Assembly (NCBI GenBank): GCA_035531115.1
Contig: DATKTP010000150.1
Span: 1 to 47,972, forward strand
Reading direction: 5' to 3'
Length of the DNA stretch: 47,972 nucleotides
DNA from: Candidatus Deferrimicrobium sp.
GTDB taxonomy: Archaea > Asgardarchaeota > Lokiarchaeia > Helarchaeales > HEL-GB-A
Shown in pieces: positions 2,465-46,851 of the stretch; within the stretch, counting starts at the first letter, position 1, and each line of letters begins with the position of its first letter. The translations under genes and the position numbers were made by a program. A model generated the notes under the pieces. That model saw only the letters and a program-made list of their open reading frames with translations, did no database searches and was not told the origin of the DNA.

Positions 2465-3589
2465 TTATTCAATGTCTGTTGGTTGTTGTTTCCAATACCT
2501 GCCATATGCAATCCAATCTGGATATTTTTCAAATACTTCTTTCATAACTGGATTCTCAAAAAGGAAAATCCGTTTATATCGGAGATGCTTTTCAAGATCA
2601 TCTATATTCGTAATTTGATTGCATTCGAGATGAAAAACCGTTTTATTATCTGATAGATTTTGCACTGAACTGATCTGATTGTATCCAAGTAATACAAGAT
2701 TGAGTTGAACCGGGAAATCATTTCCAATAATTTCAGTAATGTGATTATTATCAAGTTCTAGATACTTTAATGCTGTTAATGAGTAAATACCATCTATTTT
2801 ATTAACACTATTAAATTTTAAACGCAAAATTTTCAGATTTTTTAAAGATGATAACCCCTCAATTAATTTTATTTGGTTGTTATTTAAATTCAGTTCATTG
2901 AGTTCAGTGAGATTTTCTAACCCTTCGATTTTTCCAATTCGATTTCCCTCCAGATTTAGCTCAGAAAGATTTCTGAGTGAATCTAACCCTTCAATTCGTG
3001 AAATATGATTGTACTCCAAGTTTAAAGAACGAAGTGCTGTTAAAGTATTTAAACCGCGGATCTCTGCAGGATCGTTATGAGAAAGATTCAATTTGATAAG
3101 TTTATTTAGATTCTCTAAGCCCTTTACCATTTGTATATTGTTATAGGAGAGATCTAGTTCCTCGAGATTTATTAATGCATCTAACTTTTTTATTTCAAAT
3201 AACCGATTATGAGAAAGATTTAGATGCTTAAGAGAGGTCAAATTATCTAAACCATTTATCTCTCCTATCTTATTATTCATACAAAATAAACTCTCGATTC
3301 TAGGAAAATGGTCTAAACCCTTTAAATCTTCAATTTGATTATTATTTAAAGATAAAGAACGTAGTTTAGGTAATTTTTCTAATAATATTAACCCTTCTAA
3401 ATTCCTAATCTTGTTATTATTCAGTTCCAAATACTTGAGCTTTCCCAGAGATTCCAGTCCTTCGACTTCTGAAAGATCTGAAAGTCTCTGATTGGATAAG
3501 TCTAATAATCCCCCCCTAGTTAGCCCAATCTTTTCACCATGTAGAACAATAGAGTCCGACATATTGGTATTTCCAATAAAGGTATTCAT
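2465..3589 (-). CDS. leucine-rich repeat protein with 22-residue SDS22/internalin-type repeats
   Basis: About 13 consecutive repeats fit the pattern LxxLxxLxLxxNxIxxIEGLExL (for example LKYLELNNNKIRNLEGL, LRSLNLEYNHISRIEGLDSL). Confidence 0.85.
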   Translation of the reverse strand: MNTFIGNTNMSDSIVLHGEKIGLTRGGLLDLSNQRLSDLSEVEGLESLGKLKYLELNNNKIRNLEGLILLEKLPKLRSLSLNNNQIEDLKGLDHFPRIESLFCMNNKIGEINGLDNLTSLKHLNLSHNRLFEIKKLDALINLEELDLSYNNIQMVKGLENLNKLIKLNLSHNDPAEIRGLNTLTALRSLNLEYNHISRIEGLDSLRNLSELNLEGNRIGKIEGLENLTELNELNLNNNQIKLIEGLSSLKNLKILRLKFNSVNKIDGIYSLTALKYLELDNNHITEIIGNDFPVQLNLVLLGYNQISSVQNLSDNKTVFHLECNQITNIDDLEKHLRYKRIFLFENPVMKEVFEKYPDWIAYGRYWKQQPTDIE

Positions 3590-6013: not shown

Positions 6014-6412
6014 TTAAACTCCTCCAACGCGCCGTGCTTTCATTTTCCATTTCTTTTTAAAACGCTCTGTCTTATATTCAAGCCTGTCCCTGCCCTTTTG
6101 TTTAATTGCCCCGTATTGATCTGCTAATTTCATTAGTAAAGCTTTCGCATCCTTATTAATAATTGAAGCTGGATTCAGTAATCTGTCTATTATTTCCTTG
6201 CTATCTGCATTTTCTTCCAATCCCAGAGTTTTTAGCTGGATCATATATGAAGAAGTTGTCCATGTCTTTTCTTTTTTTAATAAACCTTTCACGCGAACAA
6301 TTTCGCCCTTCTTTGTAAGAAAGTTACTCTTGCTTTCCGTTATTTGCTTTGGTTCGTGAATATAAATTGTTACATATACTTCTTTTGGTTCTTGATTTTC
6401 TTCTTTAGGCAT
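6014..6412 (-). CDS. hypothetical basic protein ending in RRVGGV
   Basis: 132-aa ORF. Its ATG lies 3 nt after the stop of the upstream longin-like gene, suggesting translational coupling. I recognised no family. The C-terminus is KMKARRVGGV. Confidence 0.5.
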   Translation of the reverse strand: MPKEENQEPKEVYVTIYIHEPKQITESKSNFLTKKGEIVRVKGLLKKEKTWTTSSYMIQLKTLGLEENADSKEIIDRLLNPASIINKDAKALLMKLADQYGAIKQKGRDRLEYKTERFKKKWKMKARRVGGV

Positions 6413-6415
6413 GAT

Positions 6416-7051
6416 CTAGTCCTTCTTTTCATCATTTTTGGATATTATTCGTTTTAGTGCGCTTCTTACTTTCTTTGGTGCGTCTATTAAAAAATTTGGT
6501 GGATAGAATCTATTCATTTTATCGGTTATATTTTCTAAAAATCCAACCGTGTGGTCTAATTTTTCAAGTTCATTCTTATCCTTTGGAACGAATAGATTTG
6601 TAAATTTCTCAATTAATTTTTCAAATGAGCCTTTATTAATAAAATTAAAATCAATTTTATGGAGTTTAAGACCCTTACTATTCAAAATTTTGTCTAACTC
6701 TGTATCGAATTTCTGAAATACGGTAATATCATTGTTCCATATTGGGATAATTTCTCCAAATTCACGAAAAAAAGCTTCTTCAATTAAATCAATTTTTTCC
6801 CGAATTTTATCCTCCCGATCATCAGAATCGGCTGCAACCACAAAAATAATTTTTTGGTCCGTATATTTGTAATATAGGATAATATCATCAAGATTAATGC
6901 TTTTTAACTGCCGCTGGCTAATTTCCTTAGAAAAAGATAAAATTGCTACGAGAAATCCTGAGAACAATTGTTCATTTATGTTTAAATCTCGATATTCACG
7001 GTAATAAAGACACTTTCCGTCCGTATGGACGACCCAGATACCGGTAATCAT
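6416..7051 (-). CDS. longin-like (AP sigma / SNARE-like fold) domain protein
   Basis: The N-terminal ~105 aa read MITGIWVVHTDGKCLYYREY...LFSGFLVAILSFSKEI...IILYYKYTDQKIIFVVAADSDDREDKIREKIDLIEEAFFREFG. This mirrors the adaptor sigma-chain/longin pattern (MI-x-h-h-h-x-G-K-x-L-x-x-Y, then hhYrrY..hhFvv..d..dNe...le.I..fve.ld..Fg). Confidence 0.5.
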   Translation of the reverse strand: MITGIWVVHTDGKCLYYREYRDLNINEQLFSGFLVAILSFSKEISQRQLKSINLDDIILYYKYTDQKIIFVVAADSDDREDKIREKIDLIEEAFFREFGEIIPIWNNDITVFQKFDTELDKILNSKGLKLHKIDFNFINKGSFEKLIEKFTNLFVPKDKNELEKLDHTVGFLENITDKMNRFYPPNFLIDAPKKVRSALKRIISKNDEKKD

Positions 7052-7080
7052 TATTTAGCCTCAAGATCTATTGCCTATTT

Positions 7081-9291
7081 CTAAAACATTTCATTTATTT
7101 GTTTAGATACAATTTTTACATCATCGGCGATCAGTAGAGCATCTCCCTCTTTATCAATTTTTAGTAATAAAAAGAGATTATCATTTATTGGGATCGCCAA
7201 AATATGGCCAAACCCTTTTATATTAGTAGCAATAAGCATATCTGTAGAAGCTTTTATCGTCGCGTATTTAGTATCCCCTAAAAATACTGAAGGCGCCTGT
7301 GCTTTCCAATTTTGGACTAATTTCGAAATATCGTTAGTTATGTCCCATAAATTCTGTTCCTTTGTTGTTTGATAAAAAATCGTTCCATTATAATCAATTA
7401 ATGCAAGATACAGTATTTCCGGGATTCCTAATAGACTATCAATAAAATTTAGAACTTCTGAAACTTTATCTTCTTCTGTATCGATTTCCTTACTTAAAAT
7501 TTCCGTATTATATGGTTGTTTATGTTGCTCTGGCTGAATATATGTTTCTATTTGCCCCTCGTTTGGTTTCATCAGGCTTTCAAATGATGGGGCCTTTGGA
7601 ATTTCTGGGATTATAAGGGAATTGATTGAAGAGGGGGAAATTGGTTTAGATGGTTGACTCTTTCCTAGAAGTTCTGAAGGGCGTAATAGTGGTGATTCGT
7701 CAATGATTGGAGTCGGACTTGGTGTAACTGGAGTATATGTAGAATCTGGGGTTCTTGTAGGAGGTGATGTAATAGGCATCTGTGGTAAATAAGGCGGTGT
7801 TTGTGGTTGGACTGGAGGTGTAACCTTTATAGGAATAGGTGTTATTGGGGTTACCACAGGTTCAGTAATTGCAGGTTTCCCACTCTTTTTAAATCTTCTT
7901 GAAGATTCTGAATTCAGCAATTTTTCTAACATCAATTCTCGATTCTTTTTTGAAACCATCATCAATTTATCTACTAACTTATTTTGAGCCGTTATCGGCA
8001 TCAATGGTAATTCTTCTTGAATTGTTCTAATATACGTCTCCCTTGCAAGTGTTTCATTTTCTGTTGGGGTTTCTTCAAGTATTTGTAGAGCCGTTTCAAC
8101 AGCTTCTTCTTTTGAGACGGTGGATCCTTCAGTAACTTTCTCATATTTTGCTTCCAATTCAAGAGTTTGATATTCAGTTTTCAATTTATCCTTAATTGCG
8201 ACGAGATGCATGAATTCGTCGATTGGAATCCGAATCCACCCCTTTTCTTCAAATTTTATAATAATTCTGAAAATGTCAAGGTAAGGTATTTGAGTTACCG
8301 TCTGTAAATCAAAAATTGAGTGTGCTCCATCCAATAATTCAAGAACGCGTTTCTCCTTCTCATCAAATCCCATAGTAAATGATACATTAGCAGTGAGAAT
8401 CGGTTTGATTAATAATTCAGGATGTGTTTTTTCCTCAACCGGTGCAACTTCAGCTTCTGCAGGCAGTTCTTCTTCTTCGGGAATTTTTACCGTCATCTTG
8501 ACAATTTTATTTTTCTCCATTTTTTCCAAAGTACTTTTTAGTTCTCTTTCAGAAATATTTAATTTATCTGCAATCTCTCTACATGTATTATTTCCATCAC
8601 ATAATTCGTTTATATCATAGCTTTTTTTGGAAATCATCCCTAATCTCACAGCTGTCTCTGGAAATTTCTTAATACTCACAGGACTAATTTCTACTTCCCC
8701 TTTAAATTCGAGTTTAAGCCATTCCTTCTCTTCATAACGACGGATAATATCTACCACATTTTTTCGTGGGATTCTTGTTTTATCAATTAGTTCTTTTATC
8801 GAATGACTTCCATCGCACAGCTTTAATACCCCTGATTCATCATCCGTCAATCCCATCGTTAATGATACAGTCTTTACTAATTTCGGCATAATATGCCCTT
8901 TTTCTTCTGTTACAATTGGTTTTGAGGTTGGTAATTCAATTGCAACTTTCAATTCATTGATAAAGTTACCAATCTTCGTTTTAAACGAGAGCAATTGCCC
9001 TTGATACCCTTTTTTTGTATAGAGAGCTAATAAAGTGTCATCTAATATTTTAAAAATCGCTAAATTTGTTCCTGCAAGTGGAAAAGCGTGCCCAAATATC
9101 GTCATTTGTTTAAATTCTGTAACATTGAATAATTTCAATAATTCTATGTGATTATCAAGCGCAGTACTTGCATATAATACGCTACCAGCCTTCAAAATAG
9201 CGATATAAACCCTTTCTAATAAGAGTTTCTCCATTTCACTCATTATATTTCCAGCGATCTCGTCTAAAGTTTTGGGCATATAATCCCCCAC
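7081..9291 (-). CDS. 736-aa multidomain scaffold: Roadblock-like N-domain, three winged-helix repeats, coiled coil, Pro-rich linker, profilin-like (or Roadblock-like) C-domain
   Basis: There are internal repeats at aa 137-197, 209-268 and 295-357 (LCDGSHSIKELIDKTRIPRKNVVDIIRRYEEKEWL / LCDGNNTCREIADKLNISERELKSTLEKMEKNKIV / LLDGAHSIFDLQTVTQIPYLDIFRIIIKFEEKGWI). The P/T/S-rich region covers aa 472-575. The C-terminal 127 aa carry the profilin-like motifs listed in the findings. Confidence 0.6.
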   Translation of the reverse strand: MGDYMPKTLDEIAGNIMSEMEKLLLERVYIAILKAGSVLYASTALDNHIELLKLFNVTEFKQMTIFGHAFPLAGTNLAIFKILDDTLLALYTKKGYQGQLLSFKTKIGNFINELKVAIELPTSKPIVTEEKGHIMPKLVKTVSLTMGLTDDESGVLKLCDGSHSIKELIDKTRIPRKNVVDIIRRYEEKEWLKLEFKGEVEISPVSIKKFPETAVRLGMISKKSYDINELCDGNNTCREIADKLNISERELKSTLEKMEKNKIVKMTVKIPEEEELPAEAEVAPVEEKTHPELLIKPILTANVSFTMGFDEKEKRVLELLDGAHSIFDLQTVTQIPYLDIFRIIIKFEEKGWIRIPIDEFMHLVAIKDKLKTEYQTLELEAKYEKVTEGSTVSKEEAVETALQILEETPTENETLARETYIRTIQEELPLMPITAQNKLVDKLMMVSKKNRELMLEKLLNSESSRRFKKSGKPAITEPVVTPITPIPIKVTPPVQPQTPPYLPQMPITSPPTRTPDSTYTPVTPSPTPIIDESPLLRPSELLGKSQPSKPISPSSINSLIIPEIPKAPSFESLMKPNEGQIETYIQPEQHKQPYNTEILSKEIDTEEDKVSEVLNFIDSLLGIPEILYLALIDYNGTIFYQTTKEQNLWDITNDISKLVQNWKAQAPSVFLGDTKYATIKASTDMLIATNIKGFGHILAIPINDNLFLLLKIDKEGDALLIADDVKIVSKQINEMF

Positions 9292-9415
9292 TATTTTTTT
9301 GTATCAATTTAGTATGTAGTGAATTAAAAAGATTTTTTCTTTTCGCATTTGTTAGATAAAAATACTTATTTAAGAAAAATATGAAAATACAATCCTAAAT
9401 ACCAAGGAGATTTTA

Positions 9416-10513
9416 ATGGGAAACTTAATTGAAAATGAGAGCGCTTTGATCTTGCAAGAATATAGTACTGATTATAATGAAGATAAGCCTGCCGATATCA
9501 AAATTTATTTGTCGATTACACCCGAAATTCATTATTCAATTCAGATAAACTTTGAAACCTATCCTGAAAAACCCAAACTTATCCTTCCCTCTCAATTGCA
9601 CGAGGATTTAGGGGAACCCGAAAGTCTTCTGCATGTTTTACATAACTGGAATCCCCAAAATCCTTCCCATGTCGTCGAAATTATCCATGAATTAGAAGAA
9701 TTTCTCCAACGAATAATACATCCGACTGATGAAATGGAGGAGATTACGATGGAGTTTAACGCTCACATGATCGGTCCTCACAAGATGCAGGTTACTCTTT
9801 TCTCATATAAAATGAAAGTCTTCGAATTTCAAATTTCCCAGAATAAGCCAGATCCGCCTCTTCTTATTCTAAGTCATGAACTTGAGAAAATTATCAAACC
9901 GAATGAACTTTATACTTTACAGAATTGGCAGAACTATCGCCTTATTGATATCTGTCGAGAGCTTTCCAAAAAAATTGACCACCGAACTCGAATTCTTGAT
10001 GAACTTAAATTACTAGAAAAGAGAACTGAATATCAAAAAATCATAAAAAAATGGAATGCCCAAGAATTGATAATCGGCATCCGAATTGAAATTGAAACTG
10101 GGGAAAATTGTGAAATTGATGTAATAATATTAGAGGAATTTCCTGTTGCGCCCCCAAATGTTGAGCTGATAAACACTAGTATGGGCGAGATCTCTGATGA
10201 TTTTAATAACTTTTTGCTCTCAATTTACAATGAATGGGTAAATGCAAACACTTTAGTGGAAATGCTTGACGATATACGAAATTTTCTTAAAAGCAAATCC
10301 AAACATATCTGTCAAATCTGTCATGAGTATAAATGTCCAAAATGCAATAAACCAATAAGAATTTTAAAAGTGGTGGGAATTTCAGGAGAAAACGAATGTA
10401 AACATCAATGTAATTCATGCAACTCTATGTTTCATAATTGTTGTTGGAGCGAACAAACAAAACTCACTCGAAAATGCCCCATCTGTTATATATCACTTTC
10501 TAGCGGATGGTAA
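9416..10513 (+). CDS. three tandem RWD/UBC-like (catalytic-Cys-less) folds followed by a C-terminal RING-type zinc finger; putative E3 ligase
   Basis: GGAGA lies 8 nt upstream of the ATG. The three repeats carry INFETYPEKPKLILPSQL, FQISQNKPDPPLLILSHEL and VIILEEFPVAPPNVELI, resembling the RWD YPxxxP strand-turn. Cys/His ligands are C299-x2-C302, C307-x2-C310, C328-x-H330-x-C332-x2-C335, H340, C342/C343 and C354-x2-C357. Confidence 0.55.
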   Translation: MGNLIENESALILQEYSTDYNEDKPADIKIYLSITPEIHYSIQINFETYPEKPKLILPSQLHEDLGEPESLLHVLHNWNPQNPSHVVEIIHELEEFLQRIIHPTDEMEEITMEFNAHMIGPHKMQVTLFSYKMKVFEFQISQNKPDPPLLILSHELEKIIKPNELYTLQNWQNYRLIDICRELSKKIDHRTRILDELKLLEKRTEYQKIIKKWNAQELIIGIRIEIETGENCEIDVIILEEFPVAPPNVELINTSMGEISDDFNNFLLSIYNEWVNANTLVEMLDDIRNFLKSKSKHICQICHEYKCPKCNKPIRILKVVGISGENECKHQCNSCNSMFHNCCWSEQTKLTRKCPICYISLSSGW

Positions 10514-10672: not shown

Positions 10673-11800
10673 ATGAGCGATGAAGAACGACCTAATAAAG
10701 GAAAACAAGACAAAAAAGATGACTCCTTCTTTTCTGATGTGTTAGATGCCTTGGATAAACCCGTTTCAGATGAAGCCAGTTCTCCTCAAGCAGGTGTTTA
10801 TCAACCAGATCAAAGTAGTATTCCCGCACAACCTAGTGTTCCACAAAGCCTATTTCCCTACGCTCCTGACATGAATGATCCAAACGCCTATCCCGATTTC
10901 CAAGGTGCAAAATTCTATGTCGATACCCGCGATTATTTCAAAGCTATTAGTAGCCTCACTAATATTCTTCGGGTTCAGCACGCTACTACGGATAAAAATA
11001 TGGCATCTGAATTAGTCTTAGAATTGGCTAAAACTGACCCTTCAATTCTCGATCCATTACTCCCTTATCTGATTTTAGTAGAAGATTCCGCAGATCCCAT
11101 TATAAATATGAATATTAATAATAGCTTGCTTTATCTTCGCGTATCCTACAATAACGTCGTTACCCGTCTAAAAGAGATCGTTAAATCTTTCGTAGAGTCA
11201 TATTATACGCAGTTTAATACGACTTACATTCCCTTTATCGATATTCTTACCCGAATAGGCACGAGTATAGAAGTCATTATCAAAATCTTAGAATTAATGA
11301 CGAAAAACAGAGAACTCACTGGGAAATTAGATTTTGCCGGTCAAGTATTCGCGTATGAACCACCTGGTGCCTTATACCTATGTCCACATTGCGGGATCGA
11401 ATTGAAAAAAGATGCAAATTTCTGTCCCAATTGCTTAAAAGAAGTCTTTAAATGTGCCATTTGTTTCCGCTTTATCAAGCCTGATGAGCTTGTCCGGTGT
11501 CCAAAATGCTCCATCCCCGCCCACGAACAACATTTTCTGGAATGGGTCAAGAAAACGGGGGCTTGTCCGAGCTGCCAAAACAAGCTCTACGAGCAGGAAG
11601 TCGCGAAAGTCCAGTGCATTGTGTGCAGTCTGGAAATTAAAAGTAGCGAGAAGGTAGAAAATCTAACTAAATGTCCAGCCTGCGGCGGAATCGCCCACAA
11701 AGATCATTTCCTAGATTACATTCGCATGTCGAATCACTGTCCCGAATGTAAGAAGCCAATCGATTACAAGGAATTAAAGAAGTTACTGAAGAAAAAATGA
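10673..11800 (+). CDS. protein with an acidic/PQ-rich N-terminus, a helical middle, one zinc ribbon and two tandem cross-brace (PHD/RING-H2-like) zinc fingers
   Basis: The zinc ribbon is CPHC-x12-CPNC. The first finger is C261-x2-C-x11-C-x2-C-x4-H-x2-H-x10-C-x2-C301. The second, C315-x2-C-x15-C-x2-C-x4-H-x2-H-x10-C-x2-C359, has the same pattern. H-x2-HF-x2-W resembles the RING-H2 core. Confidence 0.55.
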   Translation: MSDEERPNKGKQDKKDDSFFSDVLDALDKPVSDEASSPQAGVYQPDQSSIPAQPSVPQSLFPYAPDMNDPNAYPDFQGAKFYVDTRDYFKAISSLTNILRVQHATTDKNMASELVLELAKTDPSILDPLLPYLILVEDSADPIINMNINNSLLYLRVSYNNVVTRLKEIVKSFVESYYTQFNTTYIPFIDILTRIGTSIEVIIKILELMTKNRELTGKLDFAGQVFAYEPPGALYLCPHCGIELKKDANFCPNCLKEVFKCAICFRFIKPDELVRCPKCSIPAHEQHFLEWVKKTGACPSCQNKLYEQEVAKVQCIVCSLEIKSSEKVENLTKCPACGGIAHKDHFLDYIRMSNHCPECKKPIDYKELKKLLKKK

Positions 11801-28230: not shown

Positions 28231-28995
28231 GTGAAAAATGTGAATATTATCTTTTTGGGACCAGCCTCGAGTGGAAAGACGAGTCTATGTAATGCATATG
28301 GGATGTGGCTAAAAAATCAACTAAAAGAAAGCGTAAGTTTTGTAAATCTCGATGCTGGAGTAGAATATTTACCGTATATTCCAGATTATGATATTAGAAA
28401 ACGTTTTACCACTAGCGAAATAATGAAAAAAGATAAATTAGGTCCTAATGGAGCTATGCTTCGAGCTAATCAATTAATGATAGAACAAGCTGAAACAATT
28501 ATCCAGGAAATAAATGCCTTAAATTCTGAGTTTGTACTTATTGATGCCCCAGGTCAATTGGAAGCTTTTGTTTTTAAAGAAGCTGGTCTTTTTTTACAGC
28601 AACTTCAGGCGAAATCCCGTACAATGGCTATTTTTCTTATTGATACTGAATTAACCAAGTTTGCATCGAATTTAGTTGTTGGCTTGTTATTGGCAATTGC
28701 CGTTCAAATTCAACTCGGAATTGCCATGATTTATATTCTCCATAAGTCCGATTTACTTTTAAAGGATTCAAATATACTAAAAATGATTCAAGATCCAGAA
28801 TATCTAAAAGAATGTATTTGTTCAGAGAATCGGGGTGCATTCACCGATCTCGCATTAATAGCTCAACGTGCCGTGGCTGAATTAGCTCCTTCAATGCGAA
28901 TTATAGCAACTTCTGCAGTTAAAGAACCCCATGGATTTGATGACTTGCATGATTTGATCCACGAGCTATTTTGTTCTTGCGGTGACTTAACTTAA
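28231..28995 (+). CDS. GPN-loop GTPase
   Basis: It has the P-loop GPASSGKTS, the GPN motif LGPNGAM, and IDAPGQLE (switch II). It uses a GTG start. Confidence 0.85.
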   Translation: MKNVNIIFLGPASSGKTSLCNAYGMWLKNQLKESVSFVNLDAGVEYLPYIPDYDIRKRFTTSEIMKKDKLGPNGAMLRANQLMIEQAETIIQEINALNSEFVLIDAPGQLEAFVFKEAGLFLQQLQAKSRTMAIFLIDTELTKFASNLVVGLLLAIAVQIQLGIAMIYILHKSDLLLKDSNILKMIQDPEYLKECICSENRGAFTDLALIAQRAVAELAPSMRIIATSAVKEPHGFDDLHDLIHELFCSCGDLT

Positions 28996-29037: not shown

Positions 29038-29793
29038 TTATAATTTAACTCCGCATATAGAACATTTTGGATGTCTTTTCACAGTTATTATATCAAAAGT
29101 CATGTTTTCTCCATCAACAATTAAAAGACGACCGATCAACGGTTTTCCAATTCCTGTAATTAATTTAATTGCCTCTGTAACTTCAATTGATGCGATAATT
29201 CCTACTGCTGCCCCAACCACAGGAATTTTTTGCATTTCAGAAGGAATTTTGGGATAAAAACACTGAAGGCAAGGACTCTTTCCAGGTACAATTGTTAGCA
29301 CACGCCCTTCAAATGCGTAACATGCGGCATGCACATATGGAATGTTTAATTCTATGCACGTTTTATTCAAAAGAAAGCGTGTTTCAAAATTATCAAGACA
29401 ATCCAAAACAACCGTACAGTTTTTAATGAGGTCTTTTATGTTATCTTGCGTAATACGAGTTGAAATGGGTTCAATGTTTATTTCAGGATTTAAAGCGTGC
29501 AGCTTTTCATAGGCTGAATCTACTTTCTTTTTTGCAATATCCGGTGTAAAATGGATGATTTGGCGGTTTAGGTTACTAATATCAACGAAATCATTATCTA
29601 CAATTTTTATTTTTCCAATACCTGCAGCTGTTGCATATAGTGAAGTAATGCTTCCTAATCCCCCAACTCCTATGATTGCTACAGTTGCTTCTTTTAACTT
29701 CTTCTGTACTCCTTCACCCCAATTTTTAATGAGAAGTTGGCGAGCATACCTTTCCCTTTCGGCATCTGTTAAATTCACCCTATTCAATTTCAA
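29038..29793 (-). CDS. ThiF/MoeB/HesA-family E1-like adenylyltransferase
   Basis: RYARQLLI...ATVAIIGVGGLGS is the Rossmann GxGxxG region. It also has NLNRQ and the C-terminal zinc pairs CLQC and CSIC. Confidence 0.85.
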   Translation of the reverse strand: MKLNRVNLTDAERERYARQLLIKNWGEGVQKKLKEATVAIIGVGGLGSITSLYATAAGIGKIKIVDNDFVDISNLNRQIIHFTPDIAKKKVDSAYEKLHALNPEINIEPISTRITQDNIKDLIKNCTVVLDCLDNFETRFLLNKTCIELNIPYVHAACYAFEGRVLTIVPGKSPCLQCFYPKIPSEMQKIPVVGAAVGIIASIEVTEAIKLITGIGKPLIGRLLIVDGENMTFDIITVKRHPKCSICGVKL

Positions 29794-31104: not shown

Positions 31105-32298
31105 ATGCAAAATACTTTATTTAATTTGCTAATAATAAGATACGGGGAAATTGGATTAAAGAGTTCGAAAGTCAGGCGAATGCTAGAAAAAATCCTATCT
31201 AAACGGATAATACAAATGTTAGAGCGAAAAAACATTGAATATGACAAATTAAAACTGTTTCCAACCAGAGGTCGGCTTTTTTTATATACCCCTAATATCT
31301 CAAGAGCTATTGAAGAATTAAAAAAATGTTTTGGAATTGTTTCACTGAGCCCTGCATTTCAGATTACAACTGATCGAAAAAAGATTTGCGAAACTGCTTT
31401 TAAAATCGCAGAATCTGATTTAAGAATGACTGATACATTTGCCATCCGAACTAGGCGGGTTGGAGAACATCCTTTTTCATCACAAGACATTTCTTCAGAA
31501 GTTGGAACTTTTTTCTTAAATAATTTCTCAGATAAGAACATTTCAGTAAATTTATCGAATCCCAATCATATTTTTTATATTGAAATCCGAGATAAAGATA
31601 CTTTTTTATTTAAAAACATTGTCCAAGGTGCTGGTGGACTGCCTTATGGCTCCCAAGGAAAATTAATTTCGTTAATTTCAGGTGGAATTGATAGTCCCAT
31701 TGCAACTTGGTTGATGATGAAACGTGGCTGTCACACTATCCCCCTTTATTGTGATCTGATTCCCTACACTACTAATGCGGATTATGATCGCTTAATTTAC
31801 GTTCTTCAAAAACTGTTTCAATACAGCCCTGATAAGGATATTACTCTGTATCGCGCTCCACATGGATATATTTTAAAACAAATTAGAGAGGTAATTCCCA
31901 ATAAATTAACCTGTATCTTTTGCAAACGCCTCATGTATCAATTCGCTGAAAAACTAGCAATGAAACTAAACGCTAAAGGAATTGTAACTGGTAATAATTT
32001 GGGCCAAGTCGCATCTCAAACATTAGATAATCTCTATATTTTGAATCAGGCTGTTAAAATTCCAATTTTTCAACCAATAATTGGATTCGATAAAAATGAA
32101 ACGATTGAACTAAGTAAAACTATCGGAACATATTCAGAATCAATAAGGCAAGTTCCAGATTGCGCAGCGGTTCCAGAATATCCCGAAACCCATGGTCTAT
32201 TAGAAAAGGTTCTTGAAATAGAGAAGGAACATGATTTCACAACAATAATAAATGAAGCTTTTCAAAAAATAGAGAAAATTCGGATATCAATTTCTTGA
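31105..32298 (+). CDS. thiI: tRNA 4-thiouridine / thiamine sulfurtransferase ThiI (THUMP + PP-loop)
   Basis: It has the N-terminus LIIRYGEIGLKS, a THUMP-sized middle region and the PP-loop SGGIDSPIATWL. 397 aa. Confidence 0.85.
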   Translation: MQNTLFNLLIIRYGEIGLKSSKVRRMLEKILSKRIIQMLERKNIEYDKLKLFPTRGRLFLYTPNISRAIEELKKCFGIVSLSPAFQITTDRKKICETAFKIAESDLRMTDTFAIRTRRVGEHPFSSQDISSEVGTFFLNNFSDKNISVNLSNPNHIFYIEIRDKDTFLFKNIVQGAGGLPYGSQGKLISLISGGIDSPIATWLMMKRGCHTIPLYCDLIPYTTNADYDRLIYVLQKLFQYSPDKDITLYRAPHGYILKQIREVIPNKLTCIFCKRLMYQFAEKLAMKLNAKGIVTGNNLGQVASQTLDNLYILNQAVKIPIFQPIIGFDKNETIELSKTIGTYSESIRQVPDCAAVPEYPETHGLLEKVLEIEKEHDFTTIINEAFQKIEKIRISIS

Positions 32299-37482: not shown

Positions 37483-39495
37483 TTAGTCCTTAATTTCCCC
37501 CCTACCCCCGGGAAGAGCCCGTTGTATTTCGTCAAGAGGGATATTTCGAATCATTTCTTTATAAGATTCATTGCTACTTCCCTTTAATAATTGTGCTTTA
37601 ATGAGCTTGGCAAGTTCAGAACCTGATTTGTCTCCAAATGTGATTTCGATGGAGATTTGTGTATGTTTTTTTATTGCTTCGGGAGGTCCTGACATCACTA
37701 TTGCAAATTTTTCCTCAAATTTCACGCCTAACCTCAATTTGAGAGGTACATTTTTAAATGGATTTTTTGTTCCTCGAATAATAAAAGATCCTTTTTGCAG
37801 ATATTCACCAGATGGGGGAGTTTGAGACACTTGGTTTGCAAGAACATAATAAACATCTGCCTGACCATATTGAGACTTCCAAGCGCTAGAAAACGTAATC
37901 TCAAACTGGGCAGCCTCCCGTTGAGTTTGTTCTGGTACTTGTTTTCCCTCTGTCTTAACTACAACCACAGGCGCCCCATGAAATACTGCATGGAAAAAAA
38001 TATCTTCCTCCGCCATATATCTTTTTACAATCAGCTCATTCGTCTTTAAATCGCGCCCCCCTATCACAAGAAATCCATCTGATGAAATAAACCAATGAAA
38101 TTTTTCATACCAATGCTTCTTTCTCATTTCACGCAGTTTTGTCTCTTTTTTAGCAATAATCTCGGCTTCAAGTTCTATTTGATCCTTTTGTTTTAACATC
38201 CGTTGATATGCAGCTTTAGCGCCCTCTAATTTCGCTGCTGATTTCTTTGCTTTCGTATAAAAATTGTTTGCATTATCTGCAACGGATTTCCGAAAATCAA
38301 CAGGAAATTCTTCTCCTTCTATGTTTAAAAGAAGTATCGCATTTGTATAATCAATTTTTTTAACTAGATGTGCCGGTACAACATTTTTTTTCTTAGCTTC
38401 CCGGATGATTGTTTCAATTTCCTTCCATGATTTACCATTACTGCGTGCTTTTTTAATAGAAATTAGTAATTCTTCGATGCTCTGAAAGTTTTGATATAAA
38501 ATATCGCCCAATCGTCTGAAACGAACTGAACCTTGTTCTAATTGCTGAATCGCTACTTCTTGTTTCTTAAGAATTTTATCTGTTTTAGTTAAATCTGTTT
38601 TTTTATCTTTGAGCTCAATGGTTTTTATTTTAATTTCTTCATTCGCACTGAAAAATTCGTCTGCCGCTGTATTAAAATTATCAAAATTTTGTCTTTTTGC
38701 ATCTGAAAATTGAATAAGTTCGATCGGGGCTAAGATTTTATTTGCATCAATCTCATAAATACCTGGATTAAATTTATTAATATTAAAGGATGAAATAAAA
38801 TCCCTCATGATCTCAAAGATACCTTCTAAATTTTCGTCAGATAGAGATGTACATTGCATTTCCTTTTCGAGATGTACTCTAAAACATATTTCTTCTGCAT
38901 AAATTGGACTAATATTCAAATTCATTATAAGAGTCCTTATGAGATTTTGATCGGTGGACTGAAAAATCGCTTTCAAATCATTTAAGGTTAATTTATTAAT
39001 ATCCACTCCTCTTGAAGGCGCAAAGTTAAATTCCCGATTTGGAATGATGCGCCTATCACGCATTGTTCTATAACTCAATGCGATTATTACTTTTCCATTA
39101 GAATCTAAAAGAACTAGATTTCCCCTTTCAAAAAATTCTACGATCAATTTATTGTTACATTTCTGTATCTCGTCTTCTGTGCTAAGCCGTCCTACTTCGA
39201 TAATTATTACACGGTCAAATTCATGCTGCTCTATTCCCAAAACCCGCTGATTTCTTAGATATTTCCGTAAGGTCATGCAAAACTTGGAAGGTATCTTAGG
39301 TTTCTGACGCTCATATTTAGTTAAATGGACTCGTTTCGCGGGTTCAATTAATAATTCTACATTTCCTTCTTTTGTCCGGAATTTTATCGTAAAAAGTGAA
39401 TCTATTTGATATACATTGCTGATCCATTGCTTAGTAACTAACGATTTAAGCTCAGATACGATTGCTGCAATATCGAAAGACGACATTTCTGTCAA
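37483..39495 (-). CDS. NFACT-family protein (FbpA / Rqc2 / NEMF homolog), ribosome quality control
   Basis: 670 aa. It has an NFACT-N-like N-terminus, a central coiled coil and a DUF814/NFACT-R block (FHWFISSDGFLVIGGRDLKTNELIVKRY...FFHAVFHGAPVVVVK). Confidence 0.85.
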   Translation of the reverse strand: MTEMSSFDIAAIVSELKSLVTKQWISNVYQIDSLFTIKFRTKEGNVELLIEPAKRVHLTKYERQKPKIPSKFCMTLRKYLRNQRVLGIEQHEFDRVIIIEVGRLSTEDEIQKCNNKLIVEFFERGNLVLLDSNGKVIIALSYRTMRDRRIIPNREFNFAPSRGVDINKLTLNDLKAIFQSTDQNLIRTLIMNLNISPIYAEEICFRVHLEKEMQCTSLSDENLEGIFEIMRDFISSFNINKFNPGIYEIDANKILAPIELIQFSDAKRQNFDNFNTAADEFFSANEEIKIKTIELKDKKTDLTKTDKILKKQEVAIQQLEQGSVRFRRLGDILYQNFQSIEELLISIKKARSNGKSWKEIETIIREAKKKNVVPAHLVKKIDYTNAILLLNIEGEEFPVDFRKSVADNANNFYTKAKKSAAKLEGAKAAYQRMLKQKDQIELEAEIIAKKETKLREMRKKHWYEKFHWFISSDGFLVIGGRDLKTNELIVKRYMAEEDIFFHAVFHGAPVVVVKTEGKQVPEQTQREAAQFEITFSSAWKSQYGQADVYYVLANQVSQTPPSGEYLQKGSFIIRGTKNPFKNVPLKLRLGVKFEEKFAIVMSGPPEAIKKHTQISIEITFGDKSGSELAKLIKAQLLKGSSNESYKEMIRNIPLDEIQRALPGGRGEIKD

Positions 39496-39739: not shown

Positions 39740-40609
39740 GTGGAATTTAAGGATAAAATTTATTATTCAAAGATTTTATTAGCAGGAATCTCAAGTATTG
39801 TTTGTAATCTTTTAACTATACTCGGTTTTTTATTCCATTTTGGTCATGCTCAGGCATTTGGTGTTGCCTTTGGATGGGGGATTTTGGTTATTTATTGTTT
39901 ACTCCTTAATTGGCTCCTTAGTAAAAGGCCAGATAGCGAGAAAATCTTTTTAGATATAGGTGGTAAGAGAAAAATTGTTATGGAAGGTCTTGGAGGATAC
40001 GTCACTTTTTGGGTCAGCACGTGGGCACTCTCCTATTCCTTTTTACATTATGTACTTTGGCCTGAATTATACACACCTGAAATATTAGGACCGCCCTTCT
40101 TTGCAAATGCCCCCTATTTCATTACCACTCTTCTAATTCTTGGAATCTCGTTTGCGTTGTCCTCAACAAGCAGTCTTTTATCCTTAAAAATTATGGATGT
40201 GAAACGCTTAAAACGATATTCAAAGGAGATTAAGAAATTTAAAGACCTTGAAAAACATGTTAAAGAAACAGGCGATAAAAAGGCTGCAATAAAATTAAAA
40301 CGGAAACAGAAGTACATCGAAAAGATAACAAGAACTACGATGTGGCAACGGATGAAACCTATGCTATTTTACATGGTGCCCTTTATGATTCTATTTTTTA
40401 TATTGAGTAGTACTTTCAAAAATACCACCTGTGCTATGTTCCCCTTTAATATCTCAGTAGTTCCACTTCTGAATATGTTCATTCGATCTCCTGGGGGTGT
40501 ATATTTACCTATGGGCTATCCCTTAGGTTATGTCAGTTGGTATATCGTCTCCTCTTTTGGATTTACAACAGTTATTCAAAAAGTGCTTGGGCTTCGCTTT
40601 GAGCAATGA
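39740..40609 (+). CDS. DUF106 / EMC3-TMCO1-Get1-like (Oxa1 superfamily) membrane protein with three extra N-terminal TM segments
   Basis: The core runs TM, then a basic coiled coil (KRLKRYSKEIKKFKDLEKHVKETGDKKAAIKLKRKQKYIEKITRTTMWQRMKPMLFYMVPFMILFF), then two further TMs. This is the DUF106 layout. About 120 additional hydrophobic N-terminal residues precede it. It uses a GTG start. Confidence 0.55.
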   Translation: MEFKDKIYYSKILLAGISSIVCNLLTILGFLFHFGHAQAFGVAFGWGILVIYCLLLNWLLSKRPDSEKIFLDIGGKRKIVMEGLGGYVTFWVSTWALSYSFLHYVLWPELYTPEILGPPFFANAPYFITTLLILGISFALSSTSSLLSLKIMDVKRLKRYSKEIKKFKDLEKHVKETGDKKAAIKLKRKQKYIEKITRTTMWQRMKPMLFYMVPFMILFFILSSTFKNTTCAMFPFNISVVPLLNMFIRSPGGVYLPMGYPLGYVSWYIVSSFGFTTVIQKVLGLRFEQ

Positions 40610-42146: not shown

Positions 42147-43409
42147 TTACTTTCCATCCTCTGGTTCTTCCCATCCGAGCACCTTTAGCGCTTCCAGTAC
42201 TGCTTCTTTATCGGAAATTTTAAAGAGATCTTCATCATCTCCTGTAGTAGCTGCAGGAGCCGTAGCTACGAAAGGTATATTTGCGGGTTTAGCTGCAGTT
42301 TTTGCGGGAGCTGGTTGTCCAACAAAAGGTATTTGCTGCCGAGCAGGTTGTGGGCGCGAAACAGGTTGTGTGGGTTGTGGTTTTGCTTGTGGTTTTAAAG
42401 CATCCATTAATGCTTGCGTATCTACCTTTGAAGTAGTTGCCGTGGTGGGCGCAGGCTCTTTTTCTGTTCCTAATGCTTGTAGTGCTTCAAAAAGCGCACT
42501 TTTATCAATAGAACCTGAGGAAGGTTTAGGTGAAATAGGTTTCGGTTCTTCAATCGCAATTGGCTCAGGCTCAAAACTTACTGGAATCGGTTCCGGTTCT
42601 TCACTTATTGCAATAGGCTCCGGTTCCTCGATCGCAATCGGTTCAGGTTCCTCAATTGTCTGAATTGTCTCTGGTTCCTCAATAATACTCAGTGCCTCCA
42701 ATGCCTCCGAAATTTTATCTTCTACAGGTTCCGGTTGTACTTGAGAGAATTGCGGGGTTTGTAGATGAGTAGGTCTAGGTGTTGGAGTCATTGCTTTCGG
42801 TATTTGCGCCGTACTGACAGCTGGCTGTGCCCTAACAGTTGAAGTAGGACCTTCTAACAGGGATGCTGCAGTAGGACCCACAGCTCCAACTGGCATTGGA
42901 GCAGGTTTTGGTACTGGAGTAGGCGCTTCAATTGCATATCCCAATGTTTCAGCAACTTTTGCAGAAAACCGATGAAGTAATGCTAAATAATACCCCATAC
43001 GTGAAGTATTTTTACAAGAGCCAACTATCATATGTTTGGGTCCAGCAGAAGTTAAAATAGTATATCCGTCTTCTCCTCTTACAATAATCTCTTTGAGGCT
43101 TCCATGGCGTAGTTGTCTTAAAGTGGTTTCTCCTAAATTAACTAAGGCAGCACTGGCTGCTGAATATACATCTGCATCAAGTTCTGCACCAACGGCACAG
43201 GCAATTCTCATTCCCTCCTTGGAAACAACAGCGCACGCTTCGAGTTCCGTTCTCGCTTCTAACTTCTGTAATAAATTGGTAAGTAGGTGTTTTGTCTCTT
43301 CTGATAATTGTTCTTCCATTTCTTTTTCACTTCTCTTCCTTAATTTAGTAAAAATCTTTCCTGATAGCAATACTATGCTTATTTGGGGGTGATTATTTAT
43401 CAAATACAA
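42147..43409 (-). CDS. Roadblock/LC7-domain protein with long Pro-rich C-terminal region containing EPEPIAI repeats
   Basis: The Roadblock core reads ELEACAVVSKEGMRIACAVGAELDADVYSAASAALVNLGETT...EIIVRGEDGYTILTSAGPKHMIVGS. The repeats read IEEPETIQTIEEPEPIAIEEPEPIAISEEPEPIPVSFEPEPIAIEEPKPI. The true start is probably the internal ATG at 43319 (MEEQLSEE). Confidence 0.65.
   Translation of the reverse strand: MYLINNHPQISIVLLSGKIFTKLRKRSEKEMEEQLSEETKHLLTNLLQKLEARTELEACAVVSKEGMRIACAVGAELDADVYSAASAALVNLGETTLRQLRHGSLKEIIVRGEDGYTILTSAGPKHMIVGSCKNTSRMGYYLALLHRFSAKVAETLGYAIEAPTPVPKPAPMPVGAVGPTAASLLEGPTSTVRAQPAVSTAQIPKAMTPTPRPTHLQTPQFSQVQPEPVEDKISEALEALSIIEEPETIQTIEEPEPIAIEEPEPIAISEEPEPIPVSFEPEPIAIEEPKPISPKPSSGSIDKSALFEALQALGTEKEPAPTTATTSKVDTQALMDALKPQAKPQPTQPVSRPQPARQQIPFVGQPAPAKTAAKPANIPFVATAPAATTGDDEDLFKISDKEAVLEALKVLGWEEPEDGK
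42540..42690 (-). repeat. imperfect in-frame tandem repeat (24-27 nt units) encoding E-E-P-E-P-I-A-I
   Basis: The plus strand shows repeated ggttc(t/c)tc(a/g)at(c/t)gcaat(n)gg(c/t)tc units in at least five copies. Confidence 0.7.
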
Positions 43410-45921: not shown

Positions 45922-46851
45922 TTAATGCCTTTTGCTTATACGCTTCATTCTTTCTCCCCTTAAACCGCGGAGTTCCCTTAAACGTGCAGGAAGTGATTCT
46001 ATCCCACAACCAATAAGATCCAAGCGTTTGAGTGCTTGTAGATTTTCTAGGCTCGCAGGTAATTCAGTTAAGAATTTAGAACCGATAATTGATAATTTTT
46101 TGAGTGCTTTTAAATTTCCCATACTCTCAGGTAATCTAATAAATCCAAAACATCCAAAAAGGCTTAATTCTTGAAGTGCCTGTAAACTTCCTATGCTCTC
46201 AGGTATTGGCTCTCTTACATTGTAAATATATAATTTTTTTAATGACATTAAATTCCCATTTCTATTTAAAAACGAACAAAATGCGACCCCATCAACCCAT
46301 AATACTTGGAGTTTATGTAATTCAGTCACATTGGTAGGCAATTCTTTTATTTCGGAACAGTTTCTAATATGCAATTTTTTAAGAGAGCTTAAATTACCAA
46401 TAGTTTCGGGTAAATTAGTTAAGGACTTACAGCCCTTTAACGAAAGTATTTTAAGTTTTTGTAGATTCCCTATTTCTTTATCTATTTTTTTTAAGCAATG
46501 ACACTCATCTAAATATAAAAATTCTAGTGATTGAAAGGATTTCAGGACTTTAAATTCTTCAAATGTATTAAAGGGAAAAATAGCGTCTTTCCGTTTTAGA
46601 AACTCATAAAATGATTTCAAATCTTTCAAATCTTTAAATTTATTGAAGGTCTGTGGTAGATCAGGAGCTAGATCACTAATATCGGTATAATTGCTTAGAT
46701 ACAGCGCCTTAAGCCCCGTAAGTTCCTCCAGCCCCTCAATTTGATGCATATATGAAATTCTTTTTCGACGAAGATCTAATTTACCTCTATCATCCAGAAA
46801 GATTTTCTCCCCATGCACCATAACAAACTGCTTATGGGTATCGGGCGCCAC
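45922..46851 (-). CDS. leucine-rich repeat protein (Cys-containing, plant/ROCO-type LRRs)
   Basis: The repeats resemble IGNLQKLKILSLKGCKSLTNLPETIGNLSSLKKLHIRNCSEIKELP and SIGSLQALQELSLFGCFGFIRLPESMGNLKALKKLSI. It uses a GTG start at 46851 or an ATG at 46821. Confidence 0.8.
   Translation of the reverse strand: MAPDTHKQFVMVHGEKIFLDDRGKLDLRRKRISYMHQIEGLEELTGLKALYLSNYTDISDLAPDLPQTFNKFKDLKDLKSFYEFLKRKDAIFPFNTFEEFKVLKSFQSLEFLYLDECHCLKKIDKEIGNLQKLKILSLKGCKSLTNLPETIGNLSSLKKLHIRNCSEIKELPTNVTELHKLQVLWVDGVAFCSFLNRNGNLMSLKKLYIYNVREPIPESIGSLQALQELSLFGCFGFIRLPESMGNLKALKKLSIIGSKFLTELPASLENLQALKRLDLIGCGIESLPARLRELRGLRGERMKRISKRH

Follow-up and report, generated by a model that had tools for sequence, protein, structure and literature searches.

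A putative RING-type ubiquitin ligase family of Asgard archaea with tandem pseudo-E2 domains

The closest described counterpart of the protein discussed here is the eukaryotic RING ubiquitin ligase (E3) FANCL, whose ELF domain binds ubiquitin and whose double RWD domain binds FANCD2/FANCI. In Asgard archaea, ubiquitin, ubiquitin-activating (E1) and ubiquitin-conjugating (E2) enzymes, small RING E3s and a UEV-Vps23 protein have been reported (PMC6601020; bioRxiv 10.1101/2023.07.25.550441), as have a single RWD-like sequence and a Uev-like homologue (PMC6601020). A Helarchaeia E1/E2/RING cascade is active in vitro (bioRxiv 10.1101/2023.07.25.550441), which indicates that the upstream enzymes exist in the lineage. 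Here we describe a gene at 9416..10513 on the forward strand of a 47,972-nt stretch of contig DATKTP010000150.1, the whole of which we refer to as the window. As judged from its open reading frame (ORF) and translation, its homologues, an AlphaFold2 model and Foldseek comparisons, the gene encodes three pseudo-E2 (UBC/RWD-like) domains followed by a RING finger, and we propose that the product is probably a soluble RING-type E3 of the Asgard ubiquitin system.

At a more general level, the gene product is most likely a soluble component of the ubiquitin system, eukaryote-like in kind, in a Helarchaeota-like Asgard archaeon, and its relatives most likely constitute a previously undescribed archaeal ubiquitin ligase family. 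An earlier note on this DNA had been aware of no description of the arrangement in archaea, and in the searchable literature we likewise found no report of archaeal proteins that are multi-pseudo-E2 RING, FANCL-like or listerin-like, with an asCOG table as a place where the family might be listed. The conserved occurrence of several pseudo-E2 domains together with a RING across the phylum would be new; multi-domain E3s of this kind, such as FANCL, listerin and RNF25, are thought to have arisen during eukaryogenesis.

Three tandem UBC/RWD-like units

The ORF at 9416..10513 begins with ATG and encodes a protein of 365 aa. A Shine-Dalgarno-like AAGGAG read from the sequence at 9404..9409 on the same strand, 7 nt 5' of the start codon, supports ATG 9416 as the start, and the N-terminal MGN of the protein is kept among homologues. 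Among 5.8 billion proteins searched there were 20 homologues of full length that are 50-62% identical, besides a partial sequence and a pair of 568-aa relatives that share 30% identity; where the homologues carry a name, it is "hypothetical protein" in every case. The ORF on which the earlier note was built is therefore a real gene with a conserved family. The G+C content of the window is low (0.30-0.42), and the closest relatives of its proteins come from metagenome-assembled genomes (MAGs) labelled Helarchaeota or Promethearchaeota.

An alignment of 22 family sequences (A1) was used for the AlphaFold2 model and for counts of invariant residues. The model has a mean predicted local distance difference test score (pLDDT) of 88.6 and a predicted template modelling score of 0.72, and only residues 319-323 fall below a pLDDT of 50. 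In its secondary structure a helix, a four-stranded antiparallel β-meander and C-terminal helices follow one another in this order three times. Unit 1 (residues 1-103; 9416..9724, forward strand, as for all units) has a UBC/UEV-like fold according to the model and to hhalign, with helix 4-15, strands 17-21, 24-33, 39-45 and 54-56, short helices and helix 86-101; it contains the turn Y49-P50-x2-P53 and W78. Unit 2 (residues 104-190; 9725..9985), assigned a UBC-like fold on the same two grounds, comprises helix 105-113, strands 115-120, 123-129, 135-141 and 149-152 and the start of the long helix 176-202, with a P146-P148 turn and W171. Unit 3 (residues 191-295; 9986..10300) is RWD-like according to the model, to Pfam matches of homologues and to a profile of unit 3 plus RING made from a diverse 18-sequence set (A3); its strands are 206-213, 217-225, 231-239 and 248-254, its helices 257-272 and 280-294, and it carries the turn F242-P243-x3-P247 and W274. 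Helices 4-15, 105-113 and 176-202 thus precede the three β-meanders, and the long helices 86-101, 176-202 and 280-294 come after them.

The proline motifs of the three units are found in ETYPEKPKLIL (residues 47-57), NKPDPPLLIL (143-152) and EEFPVAPPNVEL (239-250), where they form turns of the [YF]P-x-x-(x)-P type: YPEKP at 49-53, PDPP at 145-148 and FPVAPP at 242-247. In the model each lies between strands 3 and 4 of its β-meander, the position at which E2s have 'YPfkPP'. P50, P148, P243 and P247 are invariant in the 22 sequences, as is one Trp in each unit (W78, W171 and W274).

Comparisons of the units with one another were made by hhalign from a 63-sequence family alignment, in which U0 denotes an extra N-terminal unit present in longer forms of the protein. 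All pairs proved to be homologous: U1-U2 at 99.5% (E = 3.6e-22), U0-U1 at 98.7% (E = 1.8e-16), U0-U2 at 98.2% (E = 5.6e-14), U0-U3 at 97.6% (E = 3.3e-12), U1-U3 at 93.4% (E = 2.6e-7) and U2-U3 at 93.2% (E = 2.9e-7). Pfam scans of the A1 members matched RWD in 19 of 22 and UQ_con in 15 of 22. These matches fall in unit 3 and, in long relatives, also in the extra N-terminal unit; RWD exceeds the gathering score in unit 3 of six of the ten members scanned (24-37 bits vs 22.8), and UQ_con reaches 46 bits in the extra unit of one long form (P0025). Profile A3 matched canonical E2s in the PDB (E = 8e-7 to 1e-5) over a span that takes in β3, YPxxPP, β4, the Trp and the crossover helix. Units 1 and 2 are tied to the E2/RWD families transitively, through the hhalign matches at 93-99.5%. 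In the Foldseek comparison with the PDB, the matches to FANCL and listerin, to which we return below, were followed by a Mediator subunit, CENP-O/P and the central double RWD of FANCL (3zqs); many E2 enzymes matched at a template modelling (TM) score of about 0.5, and the RWD domain of RNF25 gave the top per-domain TM-score among the domain-sized matches of about 110-130 columns (0.60, root-mean-square deviation 3.8 Å).

Since the units are homologous to one another and unit 3 matches E2 and RWD families, all three can be assigned to the UBC fold, and the consecutive UBC/RWD-like units named in the earlier note are borne out by the confidently predicted structure, the Foldseek and Pfam matches and the hhalign homology. 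This observation lies far beyond chance, with mutual homology of the units down to E = 3.6e-22 and the family present in at least 57 Asgard species genomes. The earlier note had also seen no catalytic HPN-Cys context in any unit, and across the 22 A1 sequences we found neither an HPN motif nor an invariant Cys in residues 1-298. Residues 1-295 are therefore three tandem, internally duplicated UBC-fold domains that have lost the catalytic centre and belong with the pseudo-E2s of UEV/RWD type. An active E2-E3 fusion, in which one UBC-like unit carries the ubiquitin thioester, would agree with the units being genuine UBC-fold homologues, but HPN is missing, the segment that corresponds in the alignment to the E2 active-site loop forms a helix in unit 3, and we rejected this explanation for want of any conserved Cys in residues 1-298; its probability is negligible.

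The C-terminal RING finger

The finger occupies residues 296-365 (10301..10510, forward strand) and was recognised from its invariant Cys/His residues and from its alignment with the FANCL RING and with RBX1/RBX2. Its zinc ligands span C299 (nt 10310) to C357 (nt 10486) in the pattern C299-x2-C302-x4-C307-x2-C310-x17-C328-x3-C332-x2-C335-x4-H340-x-C342-C343-x10-C354-x2-C357. This gives twelve candidate ligands vs the eight of a plain RING, the extra four having been missed in the earlier note. Eleven Cys/His between residues 299 and 357 are invariant, and C342 is Cys, His or Asp in relatives, with His in the long forms. A C4HC3 core is made up of C299, C302, C332, C335, H340, C343, C354 and C357; these eight are invariant in the three-unit clade and its closest long-form relatives and also in the diverse 18-sequence A3 set, where they are numbered C122, C125, C147, C150, H155, C158, C169 and C172.

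Three relatives (P0049, P0060 and P0121) have a shorter finger that keeps the core C-x2-C ... C-x2-C-x4-H-x2-C ... C-x2-C. In these proteins C307, C310 and C328 are missing together, and position 342 is Ala, Asn or Arg. The joint loss of the four extra ligands supports a C4HC3 core accompanied by a putative third zinc site, formed by C307, C310, C328 and C342 as in RBX1. A MAFFT alignment of 23 family members with RBX1 and RBX2 placed all twelve ligands in RBX1 order, and FHNCC is common to the family and RBX2. In the AlphaFold2 model the finger has the β-β-α order of a RING, with short strands followed by helix 341-351 and with H340/C343 at the start of that helix. From the ligand alignment with FANCL and RBX1/RBX2 together with this β-β-α order, we infer that the finger binds three zinc ions, with a cross-brace and an additional site like that of RBX1. 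The Cys/His cluster at nt 10310-10486 that the earlier note had read as a C-terminal RING aligns ligand for ligand with known RINGs.

Residues of the type that contacts E2s are also present in the finger: I301, at the hydrophobic position of C-x-[ILV]-C, the nearly invariant W344, and P355 of C-P-x-C. All three are conserved in the Helarchaeota clade.

Family distribution, genomic context and function

A profile search run exhaustively over 1.84 billion representatives yielded 171 proteins at E ≤ 1e-3, of which 26 reached E ≤ 1e-30, and no eukaryotic FANCL or BRE was recognised among the matches listed from it. When one genome per GTDB species was scanned, 57 family loci were found, and 56 of these belong to Asgard or unclassified 'uncultured archaeon' MAGs, the exception being labelled Bathyarchaeota. 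The Asgard groups represented are Helarchaeota, Promethearchaeota and Thor-, Odin-, Hermod- and Hodarchaeota, and the family is thus Asgard-wide. At most loci the ORF has 545-620 aa and encodes an extra N-terminal UBC-like unit, a disordered linker, the three units and the RING; the 365-aa three-unit form was found only in the Helarchaeota-like set (L001-5, L007 and L009-11).

Modules of the unit 1 type also occur singly in many other architectures. In three proteins of about 225-240 aa (P0145, P0149 and P0164) such a module is fused to Prok-JAB of the JAMM deubiquitinase type, and in many others it stands behind N-terminal domains that appear longin- or roadblock-like by eye, and behind coiled coils. 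This suggests that the unit-1-type module is widely reused in the Asgard ubiquitin system.

Operons of other subfamilies are informative about function. One relative (P0049) has the same three units and RING, matches the window protein by BLASTP over 363 aa (E = 2e-19) and heads an operon in which it is followed by ubiquitin, a ThiF E1, a UQ_con E2, JAB and a RING protein. Another (P0038) closes an operon of Ub-like, ThiF, UQ_con and JAB genes. These subfamilies thus lie inside Ub/E1/E2/JAB operons, one of them in the slot normally held by the RING E3. From the fold, the sequence matches and this context together, we favour the view that the window gene probably encodes an E3. In such a role the RING would dock a ubiquitin-charged E2 through I301, W344 and P355, and the pseudo-E2 units might serve, by analogy with FANCL, as non-catalytic binding modules for substrate, ubiquitin or partners. 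In Helarchaeota the protein may well work with the adjacent gene product described below, probably in a hetero-oligomeric RING complex. The family offers a clonable candidate for substrate-selective ubiquitination in Asgard archaea.

Several observations weigh against an E3. Pfam and NCBIfam scans of the window protein itself gave nothing over threshold, RH_dom at E = 0.01 being the sole match, so the fold assignment rests on family profiles and structure. The zinc-insert loop of the AlphaFold2 model is of low confidence (pLDDT 66-68). The long forms have C-G-F-C in place of C-P-x-C. Many active RINGs carry an Arg/Lys 'linchpin' immediately behind the last zinc ligand, where the family has Tyr or Leu; FANCL has Ser at this position. 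No gene for ubiquitin, a Cys-domain E1 or an E2 adjoins the window copy. A single ThiF gene occurs in the window (29038..29793, reverse strand, 251 aa), near a ThiI/THUMP protein gene (31105..32298, forward strand); its product is short and has no ubiquitin or E2 gene nearby, which makes a sulfur-carrier adenylyltransferase more likely than a ubiquitin E1. Finally, the RING domains of the SEA/GATOR2 complex are structural, with ligase activity not established (PMC9646525).

This last point is pertinent to the gene that follows at 10673..11800 on the forward strand, a conserved partner encoding 375 aa that was characterised through Pfam, tblastn-screened loci, AlphaFold2 and Foldseek. Its disordered N-terminus is followed by a helical-repeat domain, a zinc ribbon and two RING-H2 fingers, with Pfam matches to zf-RING_2 and zinc-ribbon families. 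An orthologue lies directly downstream of the three-unit gene in all nine of the loci screened by tblastn. Seven of these, in close relatives (L001-L005, L009 and L010), are collinear over about 17 kb and uninformative alone; the two diverged loci (L007 and L011) keep the orthologue at 46% identity with no other synteny in common. The AlphaFold2 model of the neighbour (pLDDT 78) found its best Foldseek matches in IFT-A subunits (E = 2.7e-5 to 5e-4) and in GATOR2/SEA (E = 9e-4 to 4e-3), with 235-364 aligned columns (255-308 in the six matches at E < 1e-3) and low TM-scores of 0.12-0.2; the part matched in these subunits is the α-solenoid with the C-terminal zinc/RING. A prokaryotic α-solenoid-RING protein of this kind would be of interest for the origins of the protocoatomer, and together with the family described here it could help to trace, from the prokaryotic side, how RING-bearing coat-like scaffolds arose. 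The RING protein that ends the P0049 operon was considered as an orthologue of this neighbour, but orthology was not established (BLASTP E = 5e-4; hhalign 66% over 53 columns), the similarity being at the RING-H2 level only.

The three genes on the other side, at 6014..9291 on the reverse strand, are divergent from 9416..10513 and encode products of 736, 211 and 132 aa. Several winged-helix domains (HTH_47, TrmB) were recognised in the 736-aa protein, along with faint NPRL3-HTH and profilin-like C-terminal matches; the 211-aa protein has a weak match to the Fuz/MON1/HPS1 longin, and the 132-aa ORF has none. The genes might be GATOR1-like (longin plus winged-helix); they are syntenic in close relatives only.

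Such neighbours raise the alternative of a non-catalytic scaffold, in which the RING heterodimerises with the RINGs of the downstream product as in SEA/GATOR2 cages, no ubiquitin is transferred, and the pseudo-E2 domains are plain protein-protein interaction modules comparable to the RWD proteins of the kinetochore or Mediator. The strict adjacency of the partner gene, its matches to IFT-A and GATOR2/SEA over the α-solenoid and zinc/RING part (E = 2.7e-5 to 9e-4), the missing Arg linchpin and the divergent winged-helix and longin-like genes are all in keeping with it, and in the SEA complex the C-terminal RINGs do heterodimerise structurally and the Sea3 RWD contacts Npr3 (PMC9646525). Yet the neighbour's TM-scores are low and helical repeats match promiscuously, the upstream synteny is confined to close relatives, and two other subfamilies occur in Ub/E1/E2/JAB operons. 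Structural and catalytic roles are moreover not mutually exclusive. We therefore regard a purely structural protein as unlikely, while giving it more weight than any other alternative to an E3.

A different function can also be considered. Behind the gene for the four-unit form, and on its strand, comes one for a class I aminoacyl-tRNA synthetase, an order seen at 41 loci that belong to several Asgard classes. This synthetase (within L012-L062; for example L043:5232-8378) has 1048 aa with tRNA-synt_1, Anticodon_1 and DUF5915 domains, and its gene starts about 170 nt downstream. In the window, 37483..39495 on the reverse strand encodes a 670-aa protein with NFACT_N and NFACT-R_1, a homologue of Rqc2/NEMF, the ribosome quality-control (RQC) factor that partners listerin in eukaryotes. 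Foldseek matches 4-6 of the window protein are to listerin/Ltn1 in RQC complexes (E = 6.7e-5 to 2.6e-4), over about 210-220 columns that cover the RWD and RING, and Pfam PF23009 (UBC_like) gives near-threshold matches in unit 3 of long forms (E = 1.4e-5). On these grounds one might envisage a listerin-like RQC ligase that places its last RWD and RING on the large ribosomal subunit and, with the archaeal NFACT/Rqc2, ubiquitinates stalled nascent chains. However, the NFACT gene lies on the opposite strand, at a distance of 27 kb, and NFACT proteins are common in archaea. The synthetase synteny is not valid for the three-unit form of the window, FANCL is a far better full-length match, and neither a HEAT-repeat arm nor the listerin N-terminal domain is present. 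Such a ligase is thus an improbable interpretation, and an E3 of the Asgard ubiquitin system remains the one we prefer.

Other genes were noted in the window and beside one relative. The window also encodes further proteins of eukaryotic flavour, namely an EMC3/TMCO1-like membrane protein (39740..40609, forward), a 420-aa Roadblock/LC7-domain protein (42147..43409, reverse), a GPN-loop (ATP_bind_1) GTPase (28231..28995, forward) and two leucine-rich-repeat proteins (2465..3589 and 45922..46851, both reverse). A family member of 434 aa with an N-terminal coiled-coil extension (P0035, at L066:6226..8305) has a same-strand Roadblock/LC7 gene and a 90-aa ORF upstream, with Arf/Ras-like GTPase genes within 7 kb. 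Such a neighbourhood could mean that the family is repeatedly associated with regulators of small GTPases, or simply that genes of this sort abound in Asgard genomes.

Comparison with FANCL and other known systems

When the whole model was compared with the PDB by Foldseek, full-length human FANCL came first (7kzp_L, E = 1.8e-8, 396 aligned columns), and further FANCL matches were 9a0j_L (E = 5.5e-8) and 7kzp_M (E = 8.5e-6). The global TM-score to FANCL is low (0.25): the predicted model agrees with FANCL in domain order and folds and differs in inter-domain geometry. Both proteins have three consecutive, catalytically dead UBC-like folds before a C-terminal C4HC3-type RING within about 370 aa, and neither has an Arg linchpin after the last ligand.

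At the sequence level, hhalign of A1 against a FANCL profile (A2) of 15 sequences, vertebrate-only and hence of limited sensitivity, gave 84% probability (E = 7e-6), with residues 170-362 falling onto FANCL 176-367, that is, the end of D2, D3 and the RING; A3 against A2 gave 87%. The alignment is in register and sets eight finger residues on all eight FANCL RING ligands, with C328 rather than C332 taking L3. When units 1-3 were compared individually with ELF, D2 and D3 by hhalign, no match was significant, the best (68%) being that of the extra unit to D2. The family scan found no Pfam FANCL_d1, FANCL_d2, FANCL_d3 or FANCL_C over threshold; a weak FANCL_d1 match to unit 3 (E = 0.006), which is not co-linear, and a FANCL_C match (E = 0.037) were both in relatives.

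These data speak to whether the protein is a true FANCL orthologue that acts in a Fanconi-like repair of crosslinks or replication forks. Its favour lies in the full-length structural match, the hhalign alignment of the last unit and RING, and the common C4HC3 core pattern. Against it, the archaeal units look like recent internal duplicates that resemble one another far more than they do ELF, D2 or D3, units 1 and 2 have no sequence match to ELF or D2, and most family members have four units. The RBX1-like third zinc site predicted for the archaeal finger is not evident in the aligned FANCL RING sequence, and the window and the neighbourhoods examined showed neither recognisable DNA-repair genes nor Fanconi partners (UBE2T, FANCB/FAAP100, FANCD2/FANCI). 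We dropped co-linear orthology on the domain-by-domain hhalign result, and a Fanconi-type function in repair is very improbable. The multiplication of units looks like internal duplication within the archaeal family, as far as the sequence comparisons can indicate, and not like inheritance of ELF/D2/D3. The FANCL-like architecture proposed in the earlier note thus stands, on the model and its best Foldseek match, but the data do not establish orthology, only the last unit and the RING being alignable by sequence profile. A relationship to FANCL is credible for the RWD-RING supradomain, a combination that listerin shares.

The likeness to listerin/Ltn1 lies in a C-terminal RWD packed against a RING, whose core in listerin is C-x2-C...C-x2-C-x4-H-x2-C...C-x2-C, like that of the archaeal finger. 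The 365-aa archaeal protein differs in having no HEAT-repeat body or N-terminal ribosome-binding domain and in the three to four UBC-like units of its family vs one in listerin. The finger itself resembles the RING-H2 of RBX1/RBX2 (and APC11) in the order of its twelve ligands, L1 L2 [x x x] L3 L4 L5 [x] L6 L7 L8, and zf-rbx1 weakly matches 16 of the 22 A1 members (best E = 0.002-0.006, below the cutoff of 31 bits). In contrast to RBX1, no N-terminal cullin-binding strand of the WNAVALW type is present, RWD unit 3 instead preceding the finger, and L4 is Cys (C-x2-C) rather than the His of C-x-H. RNF25 likewise combines a non-catalytic RWD with a RING, but its single RWD is N-terminal and is followed by a central RING and a long tail. 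The RWD of GCN2 has a weak sequence match to the archaeal family; a GCN1-type partner is not known in archaea.

Tandem pseudo-E2 domains are also found in BRE/BRCC45, the tandem UEV scaffold of BRISC/BRCA1-A, which differs in having no RING. Its first UEV domain is the best PDB sequence match of unit 1 (YPE-P...L..W.P.NP...V.EL), a marginal similarity at E = 0.03-0.07, and Pfam BRE matches one long form weakly. The fusion of unit-1-type modules to JAMM/JAB recalls the partnership of BRCC36 with BRE. The archaeal family could serve as an outgroup when the divergence of the E2, UEV and RWD folds is to be dated.

In SEA/GATOR2, Sea3/WDR59 combines a β-propeller, RWD, α-solenoid and RING, and the window gene and its downstream neighbour together supply RWD, α-solenoid and RING. 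The archaeal genes differ in having no β-propeller, in splitting the modules over two genes and in their low TM-scores. Taken together, the comparisons allow a broader and rather speculative reading, to which we give little credence: the Asgard family might be the stock of the eukaryotic RWD-RING supradomain, with FANCL, listerin, RNF25 and the RWD and RING parts of Sea3/WDR59 as its descendants, and a Helarchaeota RING-RING hetero-complex with the adjacent α-solenoid and double-RING protein might prefigure RING scaffolds of protocoatomer type such as SEA/GATOR2 and IFT-A. Were this so, eukaryogenesis would have been preceded both by a ligase type taken as 'eukaryote-only' and by part of a coat-like architecture. 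Against the known systems as a whole, RING E3s with RWD or pseudo-E2 domains are an established theme, and what is new is the archaeal host, the repeat architecture and a finger of the family's own, RBX1-like kind.

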